A stretch of 64,000 bases of DNA, taken from positions 19,344,001 to 19,408,000 of the forward strand of contig CM074514.1 in the NCBI GenBank assembly GCA_037379345.1, written 5' to 3'. This DNA is from Perna viridis (lineage: Eukaryota). The notes below the pieces were generated by a model. It did no database searches. It saw only the letters and a program-made list of their open reading frames with translations, and was not told where the DNA came from. Shown here one piece after another: positions 2,056 through 51,500 of the stretch (its first letter is position 1; each line of letters opens with the position of its first letter). A program made the position numbers and the translations under genes.

Positions 2056-2569
2056 GCCCTGTGCGGGTCCGGGTGTCAAAAGAATAGTCCTGCAGCAGCG
2101 CTAAGCTTGTCGTAAAAGGCGACTAAACAATGCTCAGAACCCTAGCCCCCCTAAGGCGCTCTGCCCACAGAGCAACTGGGATGTGTGCGCCAGGTGGTAG
2201 AATGGGTTACCCCTGGCATGTAACATGCTGGGGTTGTGAGGCCATAATATGGAAAACCTGACCGTAAACCATAGTGGTGCACCGTGTTGGGAAAGATGCT
2301 ACGTTCCTTGCACGTTAAAAAACCGTACTGTGGTATTCTCCTGGAGTAGGAACCATAGGGCTCTGCCACAGGAGGCTAAATTGCCCGACCCTACCCACTT
2401 CTCCCTATTTCCAGTGGCAATCAAAATTTGTCAATCCCATTATCCTTGTGTCCCATCCCATTTTTCATTTCATCATCATTTCATTTTCATTTTAACATCC
2501 ACTTCATGTTCATCGCCTGAATATAGCTGAAATATTGCTGCTCAGCCGTTAAGCCCAAACAAACCAATT
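2056..2569 (+). mobile_element. Full-length ~515-nt non-autonomous retroposon (SINE-like), copy 1
   Basis: TSD TTCCCAAATCCA (2044-2055, 2570-2581); CAAA-type tail; colinear with 44238-44752; CpG-rich. Confidence 0.9.
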
Positions 2570-3123: not shown

Positions 3124-3175
3124 AGCTTCTTGGATCCAGTAAAAGAATCAACATAGACTTCCAAGATAATGATGG
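3124..3175 (+). CDS. CASKIN: Caskin exon ([17 protein letters not shown]), ankyrin region
   Basis: ttctag acceptor, gtaag donor, phase 1 to 2; resembles the second coding exon of vertebrate Caskins; missed by the ORF track. Confidence 0.92.
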
Positions 3176-6100
3176 GTAAGACATAGAAATGATAAGAACA
3201 TACTATGCAGGGCTTCATTTTTAATTGTAATTTTTGTTGTTTTTACAGTTTTAGAAAATCCCTCCATATTTTTTATTATTGTGATTCTTAAATGCCAGTA
3301 AAAATTTTTGCAACACATGTAACAAAATCACAGCAGTAATTTCTAAATTTACAGAGAAATGATTCCACAAATTTAGCTCTCAAAGATTAATGTATAATAA
3401 ATACATGTTTTATCCACGACAGGAATGATATATTGTATCCAAATTTGAAAGAATGTGTGTATGGCATTTAATTAATGTAAATTTCCTCAAAATATACTCA
3501 TAGACAGGGATTTGGGATTACAGTGAACCCCTCTTTAAACAAAAAAGACACTGAAAACTGCTAAAAATGGGCTTAAGATTGGTGAAGCACAAAAGTGCGA
3601 TACTTCCCCCTCCCTCCCAAACAAAACAAAAATTCTAGCTACTGGCCTGCTCATTCACATACATGCATTAGTATAGAACTCAATCTGTTCTTTCTCTTCA
3701 ATTTTACATGTACAATGTATGTCCATTGTACAAGGTTCTTTTATATGACGCCTTCCTTGACTTTACTACAGAATGTCAGCATTACATCAAGCCGCCTTAG
3801 TTGGAAGTCTTGAGATGATGGGAATGTTGCTAGAACAAGGAGCATCTGTTGGCTTAGCAGATAATAAGGGTGAGCTCAATCAGCATTTGTTCATTCTTAA
3901 CACAAACATATTGGTTCTGAACTTTTACTCTACCTTTTTACTGGCTTGGAGATTCTTGAAAAATATTTAATGTATATTATTAAGACAAGATAAAATGACT
4001 TAAGGTGATTAATATAATGTACTACCACATGGTTTCATTAGTGTCTCTTTAGTATTGGTTTTGCTGGTCATTATGGCCATCTCAGTTCTAGAAACTTTAC
4101 ATTGCCATTATTTTTTTTGATAAATCATATTATAAGATTTGCTGGACTAGAGAATTTATATTTTATTTAACAAAACCAAAGTTTGAACAAATACTTTAAA
4201 GGCCGTACTAATTGTAGTGTTGGTTAGCTGTTATCAATTTATTTGTTTAAAAACCTACAAAATTTGTTTCTTCATTTCCACAATTTTTAATTCTATTTTA
4301 AACACATTTTTTTTTCAAAGTATACTACTTTTTTTCACATCTTTCAGAAAACAACTTAGTTCTCTTCTCTGTATCTACCAAAAGTGTTTGTATATAAACA
4401 GCAAACCAAAAATTGATTCAAAATGGCCTCAAATAAAATTTGCTGGTATAAAGTTTGTTTGCTGATGTGAATTGGTGTTTTCCTTAGAACCTTAGTCCAT
4501 TTCATATGCATACATGCAGTGACAAAGGAAATCAAAATACTTTATGTATCAGAATGTCTTTTTTTTTTTTAAATTTTGTCATGTTTCAGTTATCTGTAGG
4601 AGTTTGTATAACATAAATTAAGACACTATATTGGTGTATATCTAGGATACATTACATACATGCACATGTAATAGGTCACTTTTTGATTTTTTTTTAAAAG
4701 GAAATTTTAATCATTTTCAAAGAAATAGTAAATTTTTTAACTGACAAGGTTTTTTTCCTAAACATTCCATATGCTGTATTTTTCAAACATGAGAGTTCTT
4801 AATACTGACTCTATATTGTGCCAGAAATCAGACTAGACCTTCAATTTGTGAATTATTCATTATAAATACATGTATTGCACATTAGTTACAGCTTTGGCAG
4901 GATAAATTTGGCCTTTATTGTTTTAGGTGCATGTGTTTTAACTGTTACTGTTGTTTTGCAGGAATGTTTCTATTACATTAAACCTGCTTACAGGATAGTT
5001 CTTAACCATCTTATACATTATATGTTGTTTTCTTGCAGGAATGCTGGCATAACATTATGCCAATTAGCAGACTAAACCTAAACAGTCATGAACACAATTT
5101 TTTCTCTCACAGAAATACTAACATGATATTACGCCAAATAGCATTTTACACTTGATCCATAACATATCGATTTTTTTTTCTTGCAGGAATGCTAGCATTA
5201 CATTATGCCTGTTGGCAGGGTAAAGCTGATCCTGTACACATGTTATTACAATGGAGATCTCCAGTAAACAACCAGTCATATGATGGTGCTACTCCCCTAC
5301 ATCTTGCCTGCCAACATGGACATTTCGATGTGGTAAGGATTTCAACCAGAAATAAATTGTTTTTGGTTTACTAAAAATCAGATTCCTCAAAGAACCTGAA
5401 ATGTTCTCCACTGTCATGATGATATCAGGATAACAAGTATGAAAAATTAAGAAAATATAGAATTTTATAAAGCAGGGCTAGGTGCTATCTTTACTTTGAT
5501 ATCAAATGTATTTGTTTTTATAGTTATTTTTTGCGAAGTAGATCTAATTGTTCGTTTTATTTGTATATGACTGCTTGGTTGGTTTTCTTATGGCTGCTTC
5601 CTCCAGGTATTTACTACACTATATTTAGTATATATATTTCACGTGTAATATGATAAAAATAGTACACAAACTCTCTAAACTCTGAAAGATGAAATCTAAG
5701 TATGATAGTATCTTTTTTTTCTTTTTGGCTGATACATAATTTGCTGAAGACCATTTGTGTTTGCAAATGATTTTTTGTTCTATTTTACACTTGCGCACCA
5801 TTTGTTTCTCCATAAACCAAGAATTTAGCACAGGTAAAAATAATTCCAGACATATAACCCATGCATTAACAAACTCCAACCCTTTTGGTCATATTTTATG
5901 CTAAGTTCTTTGTGAGATTTGATAAGTCAGCAGTATTGACTAATATATCATGAATTAGCAGTGTAAGTTGGATGTTTTATCTGAAGGGGGTATGATATAA
6001 TTCATTGTCAAATTTTCATGAAGTGAAGTGGTTGGCTACACACTTTATTACCAACACTGACTTGCCTTGACCTTTGAGAATGGCAGGATTTTTAAATGTA

Positions 6101-12100: not shown

Positions 12101-15100
12101 AATTTCATGTAATGATTTCCAAGGATGCATTACACTATACTAAAAACACTGATAACCTTTATTCAGTTGTTTTGGGTTTGTAAACAACTTAATTATTTAA
12201 GTAGCAGTCTTTCTAAAAGTCAGACAGAATGTGATCCATGCATGTCAAAAACCCATCAAATTCAGTTTTATTTCTTTTTCAGAAACAGCTATAGACCACA
12301 TAACCAGTCTTAGTTCTTTTTTTGGTTGTTGTGCTTTTGAGATAAAATTCATATAGATTGTACATGATATTAGCACTTTGCAAGAGTTATTGTTCTTGAT
12401 TTTGTTCAACTTGGTTGTTCTTTGTGGGAGATAAATGTATTATTTTATCAAAAGTACAAACCTGAATATGGAAAGGACAACTGTTACATAAAAAGATAGC
12501 ATATATAGATTGAAAAAGCATTGGTTTTTTTTCTTCACCATGAATCACTTTAATATGGGCAGTGTCTGAATTTTATATGGACTGGTACTTAAATAATATG
12601 ATACATGTATATAGTACATTTGACTTTCTGTTGTATTTTAGGTCGTAGATTTGCTCTTAAGGAGTAATCTGTGTGCCTCCTTGTTGCTGGAAACCCCAAG
12701 TGACATGCAAGAAGGAATAACTACATGTTTACATCTTGCTGCTAAAAATGGACATGTTGAAATTATAAGGTAATATATTTGTATCTTGTTGGTGCATCCT
12801 GTTTCAGTTCAATCGTGCTATGACCTTATTATTGAGGTTTCATTGTTAATATTGTTTATCATTAGTGAAAAATTTATTTCTAAGTAAGTTTTGACAACAG
12901 AAGGATATTTCAATTCAGTCTGTCTGAATTTAAGTATCCTCTTTGTGGTCAAAACTTTCAACTACTGTCAACAAACTACCCTGCTATTTTTAGTTGTTTT
13001 CTGTATCACATATAAATTTTTTTGGTCCAATTCACACTTAGTAGTTTTTGTCTCTAAGAAGTGATAGTTAAGTAGTAGTCTTTGTAAGAATCATGCAAAA
13101 TCTGAAAAATGTGATACACCCCAAAAAGGCTACATATTTTTGTTTTTGTAATAAAGTTGTTTTATGGGTCTATATTATGAAATGTGTAATTATTCATTCA
13201 AGTCTGCCTGCTCTTAGGAGATAATCAACATTGAAAACCTAATAGATTCTATTGTATTTGAGTGTCATTTACAGAGTTATCTCTCAATTTTTAATTGTTA
13301 ATTTTAATTTTAAATTTTAAATTTTTAAAATTTTTTAAATCTACAGTGCATTCTATATAATTTTTGTCTCCTCAGAACATGGGTTGCATGAAAAAAACTG
13401 AATGTCAATTTCTGTTCACATTTTGCATGATTCTTAGCTTAAATTTTCCATGTATATAAGGTCACCATAGATATAAATAGATTTTTGGGATTCAGGAGAC
13501 TTGTTTTCTTGAAAAATTTAAATGTAAGTCTTTGTTATAACCAGGACATTTTTGTATCATGGAAATTTTTTTTTATTAATATAGACTGTTATTACAAGCT
13601 GGTATGGATATCAATAGACTGACTCAACAGGGGACCTGTCTTCATCAAGCAGCACTTTGTGGTAAAGTGGATGTTGCCAAGCTTTTGTTAGATGTAAGTC
13701 AAGTTTGATTCTTTCAATGGCTAAGTAAGTTTTTGTTCATTTTTTTTTCTAAAACTGTAAAAATTTTATACATTGATCTCATAAGTTAGCATTTGGCTAT
13801 GTTTTTTGAAAGATGACTTCTGAGAAAGATTTACAACAAAATATTGGATTGAAATTTCTGAGGATACTAGATTTTATAAAATAAAAAATTGCAAAGTGTT
13901 AAGACAGTTTGGAAAGGAAAAGATGGGTGTAAAAAGAAGACATTTGTTTCAGCATGAAAAACCTGAAAATTATTAAACAGACCCTATCTCAACGATAATT
14001 ATAATTTTATTCCATAATTAGTTGTATGAAAAGTTTTTAAATTTTTTGGATAGCCTTAGAATTATTCCTTACAATATTGAATTGTCTTTTTCAGTGTGGT
14101 GTTGATGTGAATAGAACCAATTCTCATAATGAAACAGCTTTAGATATAGTGCTTAAATACACCCCCAGTCGTGTTGGCAAAGATCTCAAACAGCTGCTTA
14201 CAGGTTAGTAACATTTTTTAGCAATGATCCTAAAAGCAGGTTTAGGGCTAAATAAGTCAAAAGTCATTTGGCCTTGGATTTTAAATTAAATTGTTAGTTT
14301 TGAAGTTGATGATGTGTTTTGTGATGAAATTGTCCATTTACAGGGAGGTAACATTACTCATTATCTTTCCTAACACATCTTGAAGTTGACTAGCCTCCCC
14401 TCCTATATTATCAGTTCAGTTAAAATAAATGTAATGTTGCATCATTTCTTACCACTATTTGGGGCAATCATCTGGGGAATTAGAAAAGGTGGGGTATTAT
14501 TTACAAAGAATTGACCTCTTCTAGTCTGATTTTCTATCATGTGCCATAAGTAGAGCCCATCACTTTGTGGTCTGACCTTTCCTGAATTTATTTACTTGGT
14601 GCATTGGTTTTGTAGTTATTAGTGGTATAGATGAATAGGTACTACTTTATTTTAATACTTCTTACTCATATAGGTAAGCCAAATCTCTAAATTTTACTTG
14701 TGACTTCTCATAAGAAGAAATATGACCATAATGTCTATCCATCTTGTATAAAAGTGACAGAAAATATCTGTCTTGTGATACTCTTCATAGTTAATGTTGT
14801 GATGTTTTACCATTAGCAAGGAGTTTAACCAATTTACCATTAAGTTGTGAACAAAAATGACTTTGTCATAAAAAATCTTTTTTATTGAATTTATTGAATG
14901 TGTCAGTTTAAATTTAAAAGTATAAAAAGTGAATTGTATATCTGGATAAGCATCTCTCCACTTTGTATACACCTACTGATTTTCTAATGCATGTGGTTTT
15001 GGTCTAGATCTTAAAACCAGAGGCCTGTTCATAATAGTAACACACCCTAAAACATTAAATACAACATAAAATGAAATTTAAATAGATCTATCAAAAATGG

Positions 15101-18100: not shown

Positions 18101-21100
18101 AGGCCAGTTTTGCAGTACAAGCTAGAGCAGTGAAGGATTACTTTAATGTCTACGATCTCCAGTCTTTGTCGTTCAAGGAAGGGGACATAATCAGGGTAAG
18201 TACATGTATGCCTGCTTTTAACAGATGTGTTTGGTATACAAATGTCCATCCATCCATTTCTCCAGTCATAGGCAATTCCTTTGGTAACTCCAAAATATTT
18301 CAATGGATTTTAATGATATTTTGAATCAATGTTGGTTATCATGGATGGAAGCTTCTTTTCACTTCTTGTGTTGTGATTTGCTAATGCTGGATTTATGGTA
18401 CTTTACATAGGAACAGGGAAATGTGTCAAGACTCCAGCATCTCCTGCTAAATCAAATGATTATAAGTTTTGTTACTCCTTTGTTAAGTCACTTCTTTATT
18501 TTTGGCTGCCAAAGGCTATAACAATGCTATTTTGTATTATTGTTCTGTTACACCAACTGGGATGATTTAATATAAAACCTTGAAATTTGAAAATTGCAAT
18601 GAAGTGAAAATTGCCCATTTTGAAATTCAATTATCAACACAAAATAAACAAAAAAGTTTTGGTTATTTCGTAGGATTGAGTTTTTATAGTAACAACACTA
18701 TGTCAAGTGTAATTACTGGTGAAAGGGGTGGAAGTTCATGCAAAATTATGATTGTTAGTGTGATGATTTCTTAGGATGCCAATTTCAGTGCTTATCTAAT
18801 CAATAAATAGCTGGTCTACTTTTTTGTCTAACACTCTACAATGGTAATTATAATATAAAGTAGAGGCATTTGATTTAAGGGAGGTTTTGATCTTGAGATG
18901 TGAAGAGATTACCTAGGGCTCTCTTACATCTTGATTTTATTTGATTTGGGAGGAGTCAGATAAAATGTTTATTTATCAGTTGGACATTCTCTACCGTTCT
19001 CTGTTCCTCTCTGCTTCCTCTAAATGGTTTGTTAATAAATTACATAATGGTGAGATCTATCCTATAAAGGGTGACAGTTTCAAGAGTTGTAAGATAATGT
19101 GACAAATTGTATTTGTCTCCATGTACAATGATGTTTAAACTCTTGTATTACTTTGTATCTTCCTGTATTGGACACAATGTTAGGTAAAACCAAACCAGTT
19201 TCCACCATAAAATGATTAGTCCTGTAAAAAGGTCTTAAAATTTCAAACAGGAGCACATGTTTGGTTATGTTTTTTGTCTTAATTAGAGCAAAAATCAAAA
19301 AGGGCTGCTCTATTATGAATGTATGAGCTGTTTAAATTCAAAGAAAGTTAAAATACCAGTATCTTATTTGTGCCCTAGATTGTAGTCAGTGTGAAGGTAG
19401 CTCTGATACTGGACTTGGTATAAATAGGTCTGGTGTCTCTAAGTTGAGAGTACACATGGGTATGGTAAGATCTGATGTGTCTGTTAATTGTACTCAGTAT
19501 TTATTCCAATATTTTATGGAACATTCAACACCAGGTTCTTTTGAAGAAAAAAAAGAACAAGAATAATTTTATAAATATGCAAGTGAATTGAAAAGTTCTT
19601 CCACTCTAACATTGTTTAACTAGTACTATACACTGTATATAGAGGTCACCAATTTCTAAAGACTTGTTTGTTTACTTAGAGTTTATCTCTTGGTCAGTTA
19701 TGGCTGTCTGAAGTTTGTATCTGTCTGTTAGTTTAGGACTTAGTTTTATCACTGGGTCAGTGATCTTGACTATGATATGATTTTTACTAACTCTGAGTGT
19801 ATGTCAATGAAAGGTCAGCTTTAGACATGTCAAACTTCATTCCTGATATAGTAATGTTGTAGGTAAAGATTCTCTTTCTTGCCATTTTTTTTTCATTTAT
19901 TTTCTGCCTAAGAAATATCAGCAACTGGCCATTTTTTATCCTGTTGCATATTTTATACATTTTTATACAAATGTGAATGTACTGAAGGAAATAACCTTTT
20001 TTAAACTAAGGTCATGTAGGGAATGGTCAAGGTCATACTTTTAGTCCAGTGACACTGAAAAGACTTAGATGATGGAGTTAACTGACAAATCTTTTTTACA
20101 GCACTCCTTTTTACTAGATTATACCACAGTTTTATGTGATGTTGTTCTTTCTGCCTTTTATGGTCCTTGAATGTTGTAAACTTTTTCAGTTTTTTTCCAA
20201 TGCCACATTCCTTGCGCGTTAACGAACCCGTCTGTGGTATTCACCCAGAGTAGGAACCATAGGGCTCTGCCACAGGAGGCGAAATTGCCCGACCCTATCC
20301 AACTCTCCCTATTTCCAGTGGCAATCAAAATTTGTCAACCCTATTATCCTTGTGTCCCATCCCTTTTTCATGTCATCATCATTTCATGTTCATTTTATCA
20401 TCCATCTCATGTTTATCACCTGAATATAGCTGAAATATTGCTGCTCAGGCGTTAAACCCCAACAATCAGTCAATCACAGTTTTTTCCAGTTTTCTTAGAA
20501 ATTTAACAGTTTCATTGATTCTTTCATGTTTTCTAGAATTAACATTTGTTGTGTTTGAGCAACAAAACTGGCAGTTATTGCAAGAGAAAGGACTTCAGGT
20601 GTTTTGCCAATATCTTTTTTTTCAAGTAACTGAAAGCCAAAAGCATTCATCAAATTGAAAAGGATGTCATGACTTATCTGCTTACCAATTACAAAAAAGA
20701 CATAATAAAAATCACTATTTGTTGGACATGAAACTGCTGGTCGTCTGTCCATCCATGTTTTCTGTACATTTTTATACGCTCGTCAAAGATGGGACGTTTT
20801 ATGGTTTGAGTTATTGTCCGTCCGTTGTCTACTCTTCGGACAATAACTCAAAAACACTTTCACCAACTCTAATGAAACTTTGGTGAATATCTATTGACAT
20901 AAGCTCCCTTTCGATTGTGATAAATTTCAGATTTTTCGTTTCCATGTTATGAATTTTTTTCCTTTAAAAAGGAGGGATTTTCAAGATTTCGGACAATTAC
21001 TCAAAAACTCTTTCACCAACTTTTATGAAACTTTGTTGAAGTGTTCATGTCTATTGACATAAGTTCCCTTTCGATTTTTATAAAATTCAGAATTTTCCTT

Positions 21101-30100: not shown

Positions 30101-33100
30101 TTTCTCAAGTTCCCTGAAAGTTTATTTGCATCTGGACAGCTTTCTTTCACAGTCTTGTGGTTGACCAACTTTTTTGAAGTAGTCTGTAATCCAATCTTTT
30201 TGCTCTCAGACATATGGTACTATCTTTCACTGATACCTTGGAAATTAATTACCAGAGTTGTACCAGTTAGTTCTGTTCAGGGTCAGTGGTAGAATTGCTA
30301 TTTGATGCACAATTGAAATGCAGTGTATAATTGTTTTGTACTTGGAGGGTGAAAAAAAATAACCACAACATTAGGTTTTTTTTCTAACCGATTTCACTGA
30401 GTAATCAGTTTTCATGGGAAGGGATTGTGTGTTTTTAGAAACTGTGCTTCTTATACCATTTGTTATATTCAATATTCTTTGTGCATTATACACAGCTTAT
30501 GTACAATGACAGGAGAAGAACAGGGAGAGTTAGGCTTTTGTTCTATGGTGATATAAATCACATCAATATTTCTGACTTCTGAGATCTTGATTTGGTTTAA
30601 TATGTTGTATCTTTAGAAATATATAACTCAAAATATTTCAAAAAGTTTTAAAATATAAATAATTCATTTTCCTATGGATTTTATATATTCAGGTAAGTAA
30701 AATTTCAGCTTAATTCAAAAGACAAGTTGTCTGCATGTTTTGGCAAATATTGATATTTATAGACTGTGTTGTATCCTTTTATTTATATTTATATAATTGG
30801 TGGTTTATAAAAGTCAAGTATTATTTACATTGATGTATCTAGAGGTTGGAAGGTCACTGAAAGTGATATACACTGTGTGATATGAATAAGATACCACCTG
30901 TTCTTTGTATATACTTGACTCTGTTTCCTCTTCTGGGTTATTCACCCTCATAAAACATATACAAACAATACTTTAACCTTCTGACATCATTACCATTTAG
31001 ATAACATTGAACTCTAATTTACAGTCATCATTTGCCAACGTCTGTTCTAAAAATATTAGATTCCTTGGTTCCAATAATATAACATATTCTGGTCCTCAGC
31101 AGTTTTGTAGTTCATTGGTAGTCTTATTAGAATATCAGGAAAAATACCAAAATACCAATCCAAGGAAAGTGTCAACAAGTCACCTATACTGTGCTTTGAA
31201 GACTTAATATTGCTTTTTAAAGTCAAAGAATTGTTTTAGCCCAGTTTCTGTATAGATTTACAGCTCTTAGTGAAATATGCAGAGAATTATGTAATATGGT
31301 GGAAACAGATGTTTTTATATACAAAGAAGGGAACTCACAGTATGTTGCGTATATAATATTCATTATAAACAAATAGATGAGAAATAAAAAAAGGTGTGAG
31401 GATAAAAATAAAAGAAACATATTTGATGTATTTTTTTTAAAGCTGAATGTTGAAAGTCTTGACATTGAACTGCCTTTGACTTCTATTTCTCCAGGTATCT
31501 TTTCCATGCAAGTACAAGTACATACATGTAAGGGTCATATTAAAGGGAGATACGATACTGTCTGTATCTTTTAACATAACAACAAAAAAGACTAATCTGA
31601 CTAAATGGAACAAATTCATATGATCATTTAATCAGGCAACATATGCTTTACAATTATTCCTCAGTGGTGATGTATTGTACAGCTCTGTGATAGAAACTTA
31701 TAATATAATACATAGCTAATAGTTTTCACTCTATTTCTAGATGTCCCCTTGATATTGATTCCAGCACCAGATCTTGTGTTTAAACATCCATTTACTAATT
31801 GGTTACAATATATCCATCATTCTATTAGCTGAATCAATACCCACTAATCACCAAACATCTGTCAGGAATTTTCTCTTTCAAAAGTAAATAAACATTTATT
31901 TTTACTCCAGATTAATTGATTATTTTAACCTTAATTATCTGACCCAATACACAGTTTTCACCAAGTACAGTTAATTAAAGTGGTTTTTAGGTTAAATTTG
32001 ATGTTTATTTAGATAATAGTGATTGATTTCAAATCAGCTTCAACTGAAACAGATATAAAGTGATTGATTTTAGTATCAAATGATGATTATTGATGTAATA
32101 TTGAAGGGGGGGGGGGGGGGACAGTTGATGTTTTGATAGATAGTATTGATTGTATCAGATGTATAATGATTAAGTAGCACTCAGCAAAATGTGATACATG
32201 GTTGGAAAGCCTACATATTTTTATTTTTGATATCTTGTTTAAAATGCTTTAGTAAACAGAAATTAACATTTGGTTTTTCATATAACCTGTGCTCATAGGA
32301 GATAAAAATTGTATAGAGTGCACTGTAGAATTTAAAAGTAAGGGAGATAACTCTGTAAATGACACTCAAATACAATAGAATCTGTTGGATTTTCAATGTT
32401 GATTATCTCCTAAGAGCAGGCAGATTTGAATGAATAATTACACATTTCATAATATAGACCCATAAAACAACTTAAATACAAGAATAAAAATATGTAGCCT
32501 TTTTTGGGGTGTATCATTTTTTAGATTTTGCATGATTCTTACAAAGACAGCTACTTAAACATTAAGTTCCCAGTCAAAAATGATTTTACTATAAAAATTG
32601 ATTCCTGAAACTTTTGAAGTGGTATTTTATTCTAGAAATGAATTGTCATTGATTTTATCCTAATTTTCAAACCCTGATTATATAGTCAACATTTACACAA
32701 AGCTATGCATTAGACCAAAGTCAGAAAGTAAACTATTTGATTTAAGCTGAGCAAAAACTTTTAGAAAAACAATATTTAGATGGAATGAATCATAATTTAC
32801 TCAAAGATTGATTTAATGTTGAAATTAATCATGATCAAACACATTTTATTTACATTGATTTTTTTCCCACAAATTCCATTTAAGCAACTAGGTACTAGTA
32901 CTTTAACAAGTACCATGGAATTTTAAGTATAATGCAAGTAAGCACAAATGATTACTTATGAGAATACTTGGTAAAATAGTGACAGACTATTGACATATCA
33001 TGTGAATACTGTTAGTTTTATTCCTTTTTGAATATTTCTTATATTAGTCATATGCAAAAATCCTAGGTACATAGTTCTGAAGAAAAAATGTGATTTCAAA

Positions 33101-42560: not shown

Positions 42561-45500
42561 ACTTATAAACTTTCTTGATTATGCATATGTTCCAAAAGGT
42601 TTGTTATTGGTAGAAAATTCATGTAAGTCAGCATCTGACAGAGAGTAATCATGGATACATGGCCATGACATACTGAGCATCTGAGGGTAATCATGGATAC
42701 ATGACCATGACATACTGAGCATCTGACAGAGGGTAATCATGGATACATGACCATGACATACTAAGCATCTGAGGGTAATCATGGATACATGGCCATGACA
42801 TACTAAGCATCTGAGGGTAATCATGGATACATGACCATGACATACTGAGCATCTGACAGAGGGTAATCATGGATATATGGCCATGACATACTGAGCATCA
42901 GAGAGTAATCATGGATACATGGCTATTACATACTGAGCATCTGACAGAGGGTAATCATGGATACATGGCCATGACATACTGAGCATCTGACAGAGGGTAA
43001 TCATGGATACATGGCCATGACATACTGAGCATCTGACAGAGGGTAATCATGGATACATGGCCATGACATACTAAGCATCTGACAGAGGGTAATCATGGAT
43101 ACATGGCCATGACATACTGAGCATCTGACAGAGGGTAATCATGGATACATGGCCATGACATACTAAGCATCAGAGGGTAATCATGGATACATGACCATGA
43201 CATACTGAGCATCTGACAGAGGGTAATCATGGATACATGGCCATGACATACTAAGCATCTGACAGAGGGTAATCATGGATGCATGGCCATGACATACTAA
43301 GCATCTGACAGAGGGTAATCATGGATACATGGCCATGACATACTGAGCATCTGACAGAGGGTAATCATGGATACATGGCCATGACATACTGAGCATCTGA
43401 CAGAGGGTAATCATGGATACATGGCCATGACATACTAAGCATCTGACAGAGGGTAATCATGGATACATGACCATGACATACTAAGCATCTGACAGAGGGT
43501 AATCATGGATACATGGCCATGACATACTAATTTAAGGGCCACATCTCATAGATTGTTTGTTTTGATGAAGCTTTCTTTACCGGGTTCCTTCGTATAATGA
43601 AATCACATATAAAAACAAAGAACTGTATAATTATTCCTACTACTTACAGTTCTCAAACCCTATAGCCATATCTTACAGGTTAAAACCTCTGATTGCAATC
43701 AGTAATGTAGTATGAATCTATATTATGTGTATTGGTTAAGTATAGAACTCATTACCCTCATGAGAAAAGTGTGAGAAGTAGCAGATAATCCTTTAACGAG
43801 AAAATTATTCATAAGTAAGTGCATGTTATGTTGAAGAGATACTGACTAAAATATTATTCTTGACACAACCACCATTATACTGACTGTGTTACATAATTTT
43901 CTGTTTCAGTCTCCACATAATTATGTAAATGTTCAGATAGTGAACCAGCATCGCCTGTCTGGCCAGAGCTACGAGTCTGGTGTGTCATCTAGACAGAGTT
44001 ATCATAGTACCTCCAGTTCTAGTGTTGGTAGTTTGGACAGGCTTGAAGAAACAGGACCTACCTCAAACATTAACGTAGCAGAATTATTCCATTCCGGCAT
44101 GCAGGTAAGATCTATGCAGAACTTCTGATTTAAGCCTAAGGACATTTATACAGATAAATCTCAACTTGTTCACTCATACTCACATTATAGCTTTTAAGTG
44201 TAAGTGTTTGTAAGAATCAGGCAAAATGGGAAAAATCAGTTTGTTTGTTGGGGTTTAACGTCCGAGCAGCAATATTTCAGCTATATTCAGACGATGAACA
44301 TGAAATTGATGATAAAATGAACATGAAATGATGATGAAATGATAAAGGGATGGGACACAAGGACCATGGGGTCGTCAAATTTTGATTGCCACTGGAAATA
44401 GGGAGAAGTGGGTACGGTCGGGCAATTTAGCCTCCTGTGGCGGAGCCTTATGGTTCCTACTCCGGGAGAATACCACAGTAGGGTTCTTTAATGTGCGAGG
44501 AACGTGGCATCTTTCCCAACATGGTGCACCACTATGGTTTGCGGTCAGGTTTTCCGTATTATAGCCTGACAACCCCAGCATGTAACATGCCAGGGGTACC
44601 CCATTCCACCACCTGGGGCACACATCCCAGTTGCTCTGTGGGCAGAGCACCCTAGTCCCCGGCTAGGGTTCTGAGCACTATTTAGTCGCCGTTTACGACA
44701 AGCTTAGCGCTGCTGCAGGCATATTTTTTTAACACCCGGACCTGCACAGGGCGGAAAAATCTGGTATGGTAAATCTTCTCTGTTTTCCTTGATTCTGTTG
44801 GTGAAAATAGTGGTGGGTTTTTTCATACCATGTTTCACCACTGCCTGATTCTTACAGAGACTGACACTTAAGACACTACAGTCTTTCATGATGTAAATGG
44901 TACTGATCTTTGAATGAAAGCAACATAGATCTATTAAGAACTTGTAAGTGTACACTTGTTCTGGATGTGACTTTTTATGAGCAATTCAGTTGGTGTTTCT
45001 AGAAAAGCAATAGACTCTTATCCTACCAGTTCACCTCGTCCATGATACCAGTTTTTTGTGAAGTCCAGGCTGCTCATTTTCTTCTGTTTCTTAGTGTGTG
45101 TTTTTTTATTGTTTCATGTTCTTTGTTGTATGTATGTGCCTATTTTGCCTGTCTAGTCTTTATTTTTATTATCTTTTGAATATGTTCTTTTTATTTCCGC
45201 TCATATCTTGGTTCCTTTGATTCCTCTATACTAGAATGAAATCTTGCATCATGGGTTACTGTAGAACATTTTCAGAACAACCTCCAAACTTTTATTTACG
45301 AGACAAATCAATATGTGTCAATTCCTTGTACTTTACCTCTTTACTGTGGAAACAAGAATATGAATATCTATGTTATTATTGATATTTGGCATATGATACT
45401 GTTGTTATTATGTTTAGAACTACCAAAAATCAACATTTTATACCAGATATCCTCCTTGGCTCCACTTAACTTACTGCAGAAATTCTGTGGCCTTGCTGTA

Positions 45501-48500: not shown

Positions 48501-51500
48501 ATGACTAAGTTATATATTGGTACAAGTCAGGACTTAATTCATCCAAAGGAGCAAAAATATCAGCAATAGACTGAGAGACAAACAATACATAGTCCATTGT
48601 TATTTTGTTAAATGTTTCTAAGTCTTGCTGTCTTTGGGTGAAAGTTTAACACTCTTCTCAGGTGCAGGTTCAGGGGAAAAAACCTGGGTAGAATGTTCTT
48701 TTTTTTAATATTGACCCTCTGTTATGTCTGAAGACTGTCATATTGGTCAAGGATAGTTGTATTGGTTTCAAGCTAGAAGAACCTGGCATATGTCATCAAT
48801 CAAAGTTCATTTTGGTCTTTGTGGTCTTTTGGTTAAGTTATTGTTTTGCCTGATTTTATTTAAGGGTGATATTTCGTGAAAACTATACATGTACTAGTAT
48901 GATGAGAAACATTATAACTGAGTATAGAGATGGATTAAAGTAGATAACCTTAAGTCTTGGTTAATGCTCTCATTATAGCAGTATGTTAAGAGCTATTTAT
49001 TTATATTGGATAGGTTCCAATATGTCCAGTAATGACCACTAAAAACTTGCTTCAATCATGATGATCATGAAGTATGTTTGATACAGAGAACTGCTTTATC
49101 AAACAAATCACTTACCAGAGGTTAAAGGGTGTTTATGAAAAAAATTTGGTTGTGTGATAAAACTGCTCTTTATTTATGAACTAATGAATTTCTGATGAGT
49201 TTAAGGTGGTATTGGATTAACTTGGTGAACATTTTTGTAAACATCCTTCAAATTAACCTTAATCATTTCTAGTTTGGTTTCTTTGGTATTTCATGTGATG
49301 ATGATTTTTTAAATACTTTTTAGGACTTGACTGCAATAGGAATAACCAAACCTGGTCACAGAAAAAGATTGAAGGCTGAGATTGCAAGATTAAACATCAG
49401 TGACGGTTTACCAGACTTTAGACCTGTATGTATATATAAGAAAATAAAAACAAAAAAATTCCATGATCAAGTATTGAACCATAACAAGCTTAAAACATCA
49501 AGGGAACACACTGAGCAAAAGTTTTCACACAGCCTTATACAGATCCAAAAGTTGTCTCCAGAGATGTCAAGTTTATTTTTAAAAGCTTACCACAAAATAA
49601 AATAAATCAATGTGTAAATACATCTGTCCTGTGGATGTTCAAATAGTTTGATGATTACCTCGTGTCAAGCCTGAACCAGCTATCCAGCAAACATACCATG
49701 TGGGCAAAACTCCTCCATAGTTGTTTTAAGGATTTGATTTAATTTTATATAAAGTTCTTGGATTTTATATAGAATGTAGAGTGTCCTTGAATGATTAAAG
49801 TGTACATTAAAATCATAGGTGAACATACTCATTAGCTAAAAATTCATAACATGCAAAAAGAAAAAGTGATACCCCTATCTACAACCTGTTCCTAATCTTG
49901 GAACTGAATCTAATCATTAATTTGTATCTTGGTATGTTAATGGACAATCTTATGCCATTATTGCCTTGCAGAACTCTTTTAGATAACCCTTTTGACTCTT
50001 TGTACTTTAAGAATTTTTAGTTTATTGATTGATGGGATAAAACTTGCTAATTGCTATTATATGTTCAGAGAAAGATACTTAGATGCTGAAATGTTTTGAA
50101 GTGGTATCTCCTCATTAAAATTCCTTCTCTGTACTTTCACTTCATTTCATGTTGAAACTTCAATTCATTGATTGCTGATTTATTTAAATGTAGAATTGTT
50201 TTCACTTTTGATTTAAGAAACAGAAAGGTGAATTCTGATATTGAAAACTGATAAACAAAAAGCAGAAAATGTTGAACTTTTTGGGGGATAAATTTAAGGG
50301 AAAATTATGATTTCATGCAAAAGAATACATTTTTTTCAGTATGGTATTGGGGTTATTTTGTGCAAAACCAAATTTTCATGCTAAGAAGACACATTTTTCA
50401 AATTTCATTTTTTTTGGGTTGGGGGGGGGGGGGGGTTGGGTATGGGGCATCTTCATCCCTCTGAATCTGCCATAGTCATTGCAATTGTTGTACATGTATT
50501 ATTCTACCAAACCTTAATCCATACTTATTAATGAGAAACAAAACAAAAACAGATGATTAATGACTTTTTCTTACAGAATACTGTAGAAGAGTGGTTACAT
50601 TTGTTAAATCTAGAACAATATTACAAGACCCTGACCAGCCAGGGGTATGCTGACATGGAAAGTGTAACTGATATCAGCTGGGAAGATCTAGAGGAAATTG
50701 GCATATCAAAATTAGGTAAGTCTTCACTCTGTTTACCTGGTAAAAAGGTGAGGTAAATTCTCATTGATAGTTGGCTTTTTTAAGTCTTTTTCATAGTAAA
50801 GAAAGGACAGATAAATAAGAATTATTAGAAAACCGTAGATATCATTTGCTTTTTTTGTTTGAGGAAGTGGATTAATACCATTACTTAGAAAAACAATGTA
50901 ATTATAAATGCGTTGTCTTCAGTGTGTAACTTTGCTCATCAAGACTTGCATATACTGTACATTAAAAAAAATTGTATTTTGATATTCTAGGGCTGAAATT
51001 ATATAATTATATGAATTAAGTAGTTAAATTGGTTACACTTTGATTCTAAGATTTACAAAAATATGCAAGAAATAGCACTGGTAAATTCTTCCACCTACTG
51101 TTACATTGTTGTCAATTTTTTTTTATCATATTTGGTGATAAGATTCATGCAGAGAATACAACAAAACACCCAGCATATTGTAATTTCTTAAATTACTGAA
51201 ATTATTTCTAATTTAGGTCACCAGAAAAAGATCATGCTGGCAGTTGACAGATTAAAAAGAATTGTATCTAATGCTAAGAGAATGTCAACGGTTGATGGTA
51301 AGAGGGGATCCTCTGACGTCCTGGATCCTCCAGTATCAAATAGTCCAAACAGACACTCTGGTGAGGCCTTGTACAGTCATAGACCACGAAAATCATCTTC
51401 TGGAGACAGTATAAACACAAGTGAATATATGTACAATCATTCACCAGTGCCTGGACGACAGAGAGGTAGCGATGGAAGTTTAGACTCCTGTTTCTTTCCA

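Follow-up and report, generated by a model that had tools for sequence, protein, structure and literature searches.

A conserved double-pseudoknot RNA at the head of Perna viridis retroposons and in viral 3′ untranslated regions, a candidate exoribonuclease-resistant RNA

A SINE-like, non-autonomous retroposon at positions 2056 to 2567 (plus strand) of a 64,000-nucleotide stretch of the Perna viridis genome, hereafter the window, raises the question of what its non-tRNA 5′ head does and what sets the 5′ end of an element of this kind. As the earlier note on this DNA had observed, the window holds two full-length copies, both of which begin with GCCCTGTGC directly after their target site duplication (TSD). 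Over 527 columns the two share 89.6% identity. The second lies on the minus strand at 44240 to 44752, with its head at 44752-44674; both copies were delimited by sequence comparison and by their TSDs. A third copy, 5′-truncated and without the head, was recognized at 20200 to 20468 (plus strand) by comparison within the window. The TSDs of copy 1 are found on the plus strand at 2042 to 2055 and 2568 to 2581 (14 nt with one mismatch, TCTTCCCAAATCCA/TTTTCCCAAATCCA), those of copy 2 on the minus strand at 44763-44753 and 44239-44229 (CAGATTTTTCC/CTGATTTTTCC). The retroposon is about 510 bp long, both full copies terminate in (CAAA)n, and the TSDs, the short-repeat tail and the lack of coding capacity are traits of SINEs. 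There is no tRNA gene in the element and no pair of A and B boxes as in a tRNA- or 5S-derived SINE: the claim that pol III boxes are absent holds for the B box, which is not found in the first 260 bases, but one A-box-like match occurs at about +140.

The family is large in the source genome, where 5,575 exact matches to the head-core pattern were counted against none for the reversed control, and where the first 245 bases of the retroposon, used as query, returned 3,175 candidates. A search of this genome for a second family bearing the motif found none, ten out of ten matches being the same SINE. The 5′ ends were examined in a sample of 30 copies retrieved through an inner-core motif located 54 nt inside the element. 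A TSD was recovered in 15 of them, the other 15 giving none; of the 15 with a TSD, 11 have their first base at +1 and 14 at +1 or +2, so that the ends are sharp rather than heterogeneous. Two loci on contig C2 (L458 and L459) are seamless head-to-tail SINE dimers under one outer TSD, with the junction exactly on +1, and a tandem SINE array lies at 9.836 Mb of contig C1. The dimers fit template jumping at the RNA 5′ end or dimeric transcripts. They say nothing on retrotransposition with an internal sense head, because template jumping explains them equally well; for that event, a SINE-in-LINE junction was found in a single copy. Contigs of presumed-RNA runs contain the SINE family and give no transcript starts.

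Other features of the window are mentioned here for completeness. A gene with a SAM domain (Pfam SAM_1 fragment) has exons over 49324-53330 on the plus strand, one of them long and rich in proline and serine, and we take this gene to be caskin-like. The presumed-RNA runs cover an exon-like stretch at 3125-3181; therefore copy 1 may sit in an intron, in sense orientation. A second dispersed repeat of about 375 bp occurs at 32184-32558, 55850-56209, 60470-60852 and 13065-13419.

The head has a published counterpart. Matetovici et al. (2016; PMC4758252) described an LP ('LINE promoter') head of about 70 bp in mollusc LP-SINEs and pectinoid MESC SINEs, found it to be common to Nimb-17_LMi, I-3_DR and RTE-9_CPB, proposed that it is a promoter and called for tests. 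Compared by eye with the scallop alignment in their Supplementary Figure S2, our element shows the same CCC-U-GCAGGUA-GGG...AGAAU..UACCUGC...UCGUAAGAGGCGACUAA layout, and it shares with the LP-SINEs the TSDs and the short tandem-repeat tail, whereas its body differs from that of the scallop MESC SINE. Judged by these likenesses, the element is one of the LP-headed SINEs already described. Also by eye, a body motif at 2310 to 2330 (plus strand) resembles the roughly 20-nt GCACG.TAAAGAACCCT stretch published for bivalve BivaMD SINEs (PMC4824008), and the 3′ tail at 2515 to 2567 (plus strand), ending in (CAAA)n, resembles the I/Nimb-LINE-related tail given for the bivalve Meta SINE (PMC11481361). 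In the main text of the LP paper the word 'pseudoknot' is absent and 'virus' occurs only in a reference; what is added here is the RNA fold, its covariation and the viral copies, and our literature search returned no description of the fold or of its viral copies. The core is likewise absent from the supplements of PMC10085705 and PMC5786205 that were examined.

The fold occupies 2058-2134, within about the first 80 bases, and consists of two pseudoknots and one inserted hairpin, all on the plus strand. Pseudoknot 1 (2058 to 2093, established comparatively) is made of P1 (2058-2061/2070-2073) and a 7-bp P2 (2063-2069/2087-2093), separated by a single-U loop at 2062, with a conserved AGAAUA linker at 2081-2086 directly before the 3′ strand of P2. 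The H-type pseudoknot proposed in the earlier note is thus real, as P2 changes on both sides at all seven pairs among 20 sequences; its P1 with a G1-U pair is not general, and the conserved register is CC(C/U)G with CGGG. Pseudoknot 2 (2094 to 2134), in which P3 covaries and the evidence for P4 is weaker, is formed by P3 (AGC/GCU, 2094-2096/2105-2107) and by P4 (2097-2102/2129-2134, with one mismatch in copy 1). The previously noted AGCGCU/AGUGCU pairing therefore exists but is not a plain enclosing stem, since the P3 helix that had been missed makes it part of a second pseudoknot. The inserted hairpin, GUCG-UAAAAGG-CGAC, lies at 2109-2123 and is followed by UAA at 2124-2126. Homologues with differing flanks keep the whole layout: P1 of 3-5 bp with a CCG/CGG core, one U, the 7-bp P2, then P3 of 3-4 bp, a loop pairing downstream as P4 and, after a U, the hairpin GUCG-UAARAGG-CGAC followed by UAA. 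About 25 bases of the head are near-invariant, including the hairpin 50 nt downstream, and the invariant single-stranded parts are AGAAUA, UAARAGG and UAA. The GC-rich segment behind the head (2140 to 2235, plus strand), which also holds the lone A-box-like 12-mer near 2195, is family-specific; its four possible hairpins, which had been listed as part of the structure, turned out to be private to the family and without covariation support, each pair showing no more than one compensatory change in 57 copies. Within it, at 2140-2165, two subfamily forms switch both arms of the first of these hairpins (CCC/GGG to ACC/GG) and keep the stem.

The folding energy of single sequences is ordinary (z = +0.22 and -1.23 over the 5′-terminal 90 nt of the two copies), therefore the structural evidence is comparative only. 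Rfam gave no family at gathering score in the window and no match to the head of either copy at E ≤ 10, and it left the motif unmatched in 14 homologue loci and in the LINE head. Representatives were chosen by eye, one or two per family, giving 21 rows for the fixed-offset test, 19 for re-optimization and 20 for covariation; the last were aligned with MAFFT as 20 diverse rows picked by hand (14 retroposon or genomic, 6 viral). Of 147 core matches passed through a strict parser, 64 gave no pseudoknot-1 anchor within 95 nt. Over 337 helix cells in the 20 rows, 91.1% were paired compared with 76.2% after shuffling, and none of 500 shuffles reached the observed value, in a test that ignores relatedness among rows that span several phyla and viruses. 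Double changes numbered 54 against 18.8 in the shuffled rows, and controls with the register slid were paired at 30-47%. Both-side changes affect all seven P2 pairs and two of the three P3 pairs, so that P2 and P3 covary across the 20 diverse sequences. At fixed offsets P3 was paired in 56 of 63 cells, where shuffling of the partners gave 37.7 ± 3.1, and P2 in 121 of 133 against 101.9 ± 3.0 when foreign partners were re-optimized (0/10000). The summed length of P4 was 80 against 52 ± 8 (2 of 5000 shuffles as high), and P4 was not found in three of the six viral rows. The GUCG/CGAC stem of the hairpin is constant in the aligned rows, partly because the searches fixed its sequence; scans in which the hairpin stem or loop was freed yielded one loop variant and no stem variant, so that its pairing is putative. 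G-U pairs outnumber A-C oppositions by 33 to 3, an excess which shows that the sense strand is the folded strand. The head is under selection as a sense-strand RNA fold.

The same head is carried by other retroposons. The inner core is present in at least 122 metagenome stretches and in 13 contigs filed as prokaryotic; several of these 13 matches are animal-like repeats or LINEs in MAG or symbiont contigs and not genes of bacteria, and the remaining ones have no fold. Animal-type LINEs or repeats with the head were seen in nine bacterial-filed contigs (L315, L320, L312, L316, L313, L314, L317, L319 and L321), which are likely to be host or eukaryote contamination of assemblies. In two of them, L320 and L315, the head stands at the 5′ end of autonomous LINEs, before an ORF1 of about 510 aa and an ORF2 with APE and RT. 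The proposal of a structured, non-tRNA head derived from a LINE 5′-UTR is thereby upheld, and this head is the published LP head. Three other short animal repeat families (15, 4 and 7 copies) start 3 nt before CCG, as the SINE does. One genomic repeat (L102:1370-1519) has two tandem heads at a distance of 74 nt, with P3 incomplete in the first, and one metagenome family, which includes L091 and L140, has a CUGAUGA heptamer about 40 nt downstream of the head.

The fold is also found in viruses. Nine viral contigs contain the exact core; two of these matches (L065 and L069) were rejected as chance, having no pseudoknot 1 and lying antisense in a long frame. All of the RNA-virus-type contigs, seven out of seven (six distinct motif sequences), have the fold in sense orientation behind their last ORF, and 14-119 nt separate the end of the core from that of the contig. 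These contigs encode a toti-like RdRp (L326), tombus-like RdRps (L327, L329 and L444), a tetravirus-type capsid (L255 and L328) or, in L225, an S-domain capsid together with a long ORF without Pfam or PDB match. L225 carries two tandem copies of the fold, and in L444 the second copy is degenerate (E 0.095). A covariance model built on 15 non-viral rows alone recovers the viral copies with E-values, to be taken as rough, of 9e-8 to 6e-18. Wider scans added little: a loose viral scan gave at least 120 loci, nearly all chance; a scan for pseudoknot 1 alone gave 11, where only an already known contig paired; those with a freed stem or loop yielded 28 and 34 loci, among which L426/L444 was the one new member; and a further one gave 22 with no additional member. 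In a DNA-virus contig of 212,482 bp the fold is intergenic, about 140 nt before an open frame of 1,056 aa. An identity of this copy with the HDV-like drz-CIV-1 was considered and dropped; the adjoining frame is not an RNA polymerase and the term was not found in the papers searched.

These observations bear on the published proposal that the LP head is an internal promoter, which would serve RNA polymerase II and work as DNA; the fold would then be incidental. The extreme 5′ position of the head in Nimb, I and RTE LINEs and in SINEs (PMC4758252) agrees with it, as does the sharp 5′ end, and the same source reports that Pr77 of L1Tc is both promoter and ribozyme. Selection on RNA is, however, evident from the strand bias of G-U pairs and from the compensation in both P2 and P3, and RNA viruses have no DNA stage; an internal promoter, one of the functions suggested in the earlier note, cannot explain covarying RNA helices or RNA-virus copies. 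As the sole function it is therefore highly improbable, though a promoter could coexist with a function of the RNA.

A second alternative is a module that binds a protein or the ribosome and recruits a conserved host factor involved in translation or RNA stability. Uncapped viruses would use it as a cap-independent enhancer at the 3′ side and LINEs as an initiation element at the 5′ side, while in SINEs it would be a dock for the ribosome. The Alu domain acts as such a dock. The high invariance of the single-stranded AGAAUA, UAARAGG and UAA would suit a binding site, the hosts are toti-, tombus- and tetra-like viruses, and the position before the 1,056-aa frame of the DNA virus also speaks for it. 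A module of this type, however, leaves unexplained why the fold starts 1-2 nt from the 5′ end in four families, does not say what sets the 5′ end of a promoter-less element, and sits poorly with the conservation of the whole fold in non-coding SINEs. We regard it as rather unlikely.

The position of the fold directly at the element end suggests also a new class of self-cleaving ribozyme, cutting at the base of P1, against which the element 5′ end abuts. The pair of pseudoknots would be in keeping with catalysis, as would the invariant core with its terminal CUAA, and ribozymes are known in UTRs of toti- and tombus-like viruses (PMC13725137). Short pseudoknotted 5′-end modules that may define the end and are shared by non-autonomous derivatives have been reported as HDV-like ribozymes of R2, RTE and L1Tc/ingi and as twister T-variants of Perere-3 (PMC6765202, PMC5786205, PMC8501958). 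Unlike the HDV-like ones, our head has no nested P3/L3/P1.1 core and occurs in RNA-virus 3′ UTRs; unlike twister, it has no P2/P4/L4. That the HDV, hammerhead and twister consensus do not fit the head, as had been judged by eye, was borne out by tests on all three. HDV-like ribozymes have a nested double pseudoknot, P1-P2-P3/L3-P1.1-P4 with C75; with our own descriptor, which was not calibrated on a known ribozyme, there were no strict fits on either strand of seven heads, and the relaxed fits were scattered and did not use the conserved helices. No CUGANGA of hammerhead type occurs in either window copy, and Rfam was blank. The GUCG-UAA..AGG-CGAC hairpin is like the P1/L1 row of twister, a ribozyme with a UAA cleavage loop and a conserved GAGGG; here, however, there is no P2 or P4, A often replaces the G, a cut there would fall 58 nt inside the element, and Rfam again was blank.

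A related LINE of the source genome is relevant to this alternative. It is young, 6.07 kb long, of I-group/Nimb type with APE, RT and RNase H, and closest to L320 (72% identity in RT); one copy (L346:1253-7325, at 15112252-15118324 of contig C12) and nine similar ones are about 99% identical with ORF2 intact. Its 5′ UTR matches that of L320 just behind the head, while the head itself differs: the covariance model of the double-pseudoknot head gave no match to it, and with relaxed rules an HDV-like topology can be fitted to its roughly 140 nt. This head has C at +1, UUGUCGU as L3 and a G-C-swapped P1.1, and Rfam returned no match for it; RTE LINE 5′ sequences in the supplement of PMC5786205 are similar to it. 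The first 140 nt or so of this LINE are a candidate variant of the HDV-like ribozyme. An L320-like 5′ UTR behind a different folded head implies that the slot holds alternative folded modules, and the exchange with an HDV-like fold speaks for a ribozyme. The tail of this LINE, the one Nimb-type family examined in the genome, differs from the tail of the SINE.

Several points nonetheless weigh against cleavage. The base before P1 is not conserved, being G, A or C in the elements and varied in the viruses; the ribozymes on record for viruses are placed ahead of ORFs or occur as circle-making pairs (PMC13725137), whereas here the fold follows the last ORF in all seven contigs; and a cut in the 3′ UTR of a linear virus would presumably sever the replication end. 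The ribozyme option, which was among those first put forward for this head, is therefore weaker than before, fitting no known class and having to account for the 3′ UTRs of linear RNA viruses, and we consider it unlikely.

The explanation that we favor, at about an even chance of being right, is one not raised in the earlier note, that the head is an exoribonuclease-resistant RNA (xrRNA) which both creates the 5′ end of the element and shields it; we prefer it because it fits both the retroposon 5′ ends and the viral 3′ UTRs. Copies of the element lying within host transcripts, for instance in introns, would be trimmed 5′ to 3′ by XRN1 or XRN2, the nuclease would stall at the base of P1, and the surviving RNA, starting with GCCCCG, would need no promoter of its own and could be copied through its tail by the reverse transcriptase of a Nimb/I-group LINE. 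For the viruses, the expected product of the fold would be a stable subgenomic RNA derived from the 3′ UTR. The placement is that of an xrRNA: a pseudoknotted fold at the 5′ end, beginning 1-2 nt after it, and in viruses a 3′-UTR site with tandem copies, as xrRNAs are often tandem in 3′ UTRs (PMC8374639). Plant-virus xrRNAs are described as stopping Xrn1 'at the base of P1' (PMC6299227), and template use by R2 is apparently limited by 5′ degradation and helped by a stable 5′ fold (PMC11331408). In the six parsed viral copies the linker, AGAAUA and the P2 3′ strand together measure 15-16 nt in every case; the match with the 15-16 nt given as the ring length for xrRNAs is suggestive only, and the linkers of the retroposons (2-17 nt) are longer than the viral ones, therefore the ring count does not carry over to them.

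The comparison with known xrRNAs shows likenesses and differences. The viral ones (flavivirus 1a/1b/2, plant xrRNA-D/LT and coremin xrRNA-C) are, as published, compact pseudoknots in 3′ UTRs, also in tandem and with a 5′ boundary at the P1 base (PMC8374639, PMC6299227, PMC12081666, PMC10520033), whereas our head differs from them in secondary structure and sequence and is present in cellular retroposons as well. With respect to the described classes (1, 2, D/LT and C), it has no three-way junction, no coremin and no Rfam match. In class 1 the halt is placed about four nucleotides upstream of PK1, some 5 unpaired nt spanning the Xrn1 channel (PMC12081666), a longer leader than the 1-2 nt of the head. 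Against an xrRNA it can also be said that an H-type pseudoknot need not encircle its own 5′ end, that the near-invariant bases exceed the obvious needs of a mechanical block and suit a catalytic or protein-binding site, and that the HDV-like fold in the same slot of the related LINE shows that a ribozyme-type module can serve there. Mixed roles of the head are possible. The wider proposal, a new non-Rfam class of xrRNA moving between animal retroposons and several RNA-virus lineages, with SINEs made by nuclease trimming, we hold at somewhat short of even probability.

Whatever its mechanism, this 80-nt fold constitutes a new functional RNA family, being outside Rfam and common to retroposons, to RNA viruses of several lineages and to one large DNA virus. 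It addresses two published questions, namely the function of the LP head in LINEs and SINEs (PMC4758252) and the possible presence in eukaryotic genomes of xrRNAs (PMC8374639), which in that 2021 review were characterized only in viruses. If resistance to Xrn1 is true, the 5′ end of a non-LTR element could be set in a third way, and the head would offer a small RNA-stabilizing part relevant to the design of retrotransposon templates. The thousands of copies in one genome would then be the first cellular xrRNAs, and these SINEs would arise from host transcripts trimmed by a nuclease, not from a promoter or a ribozyme.
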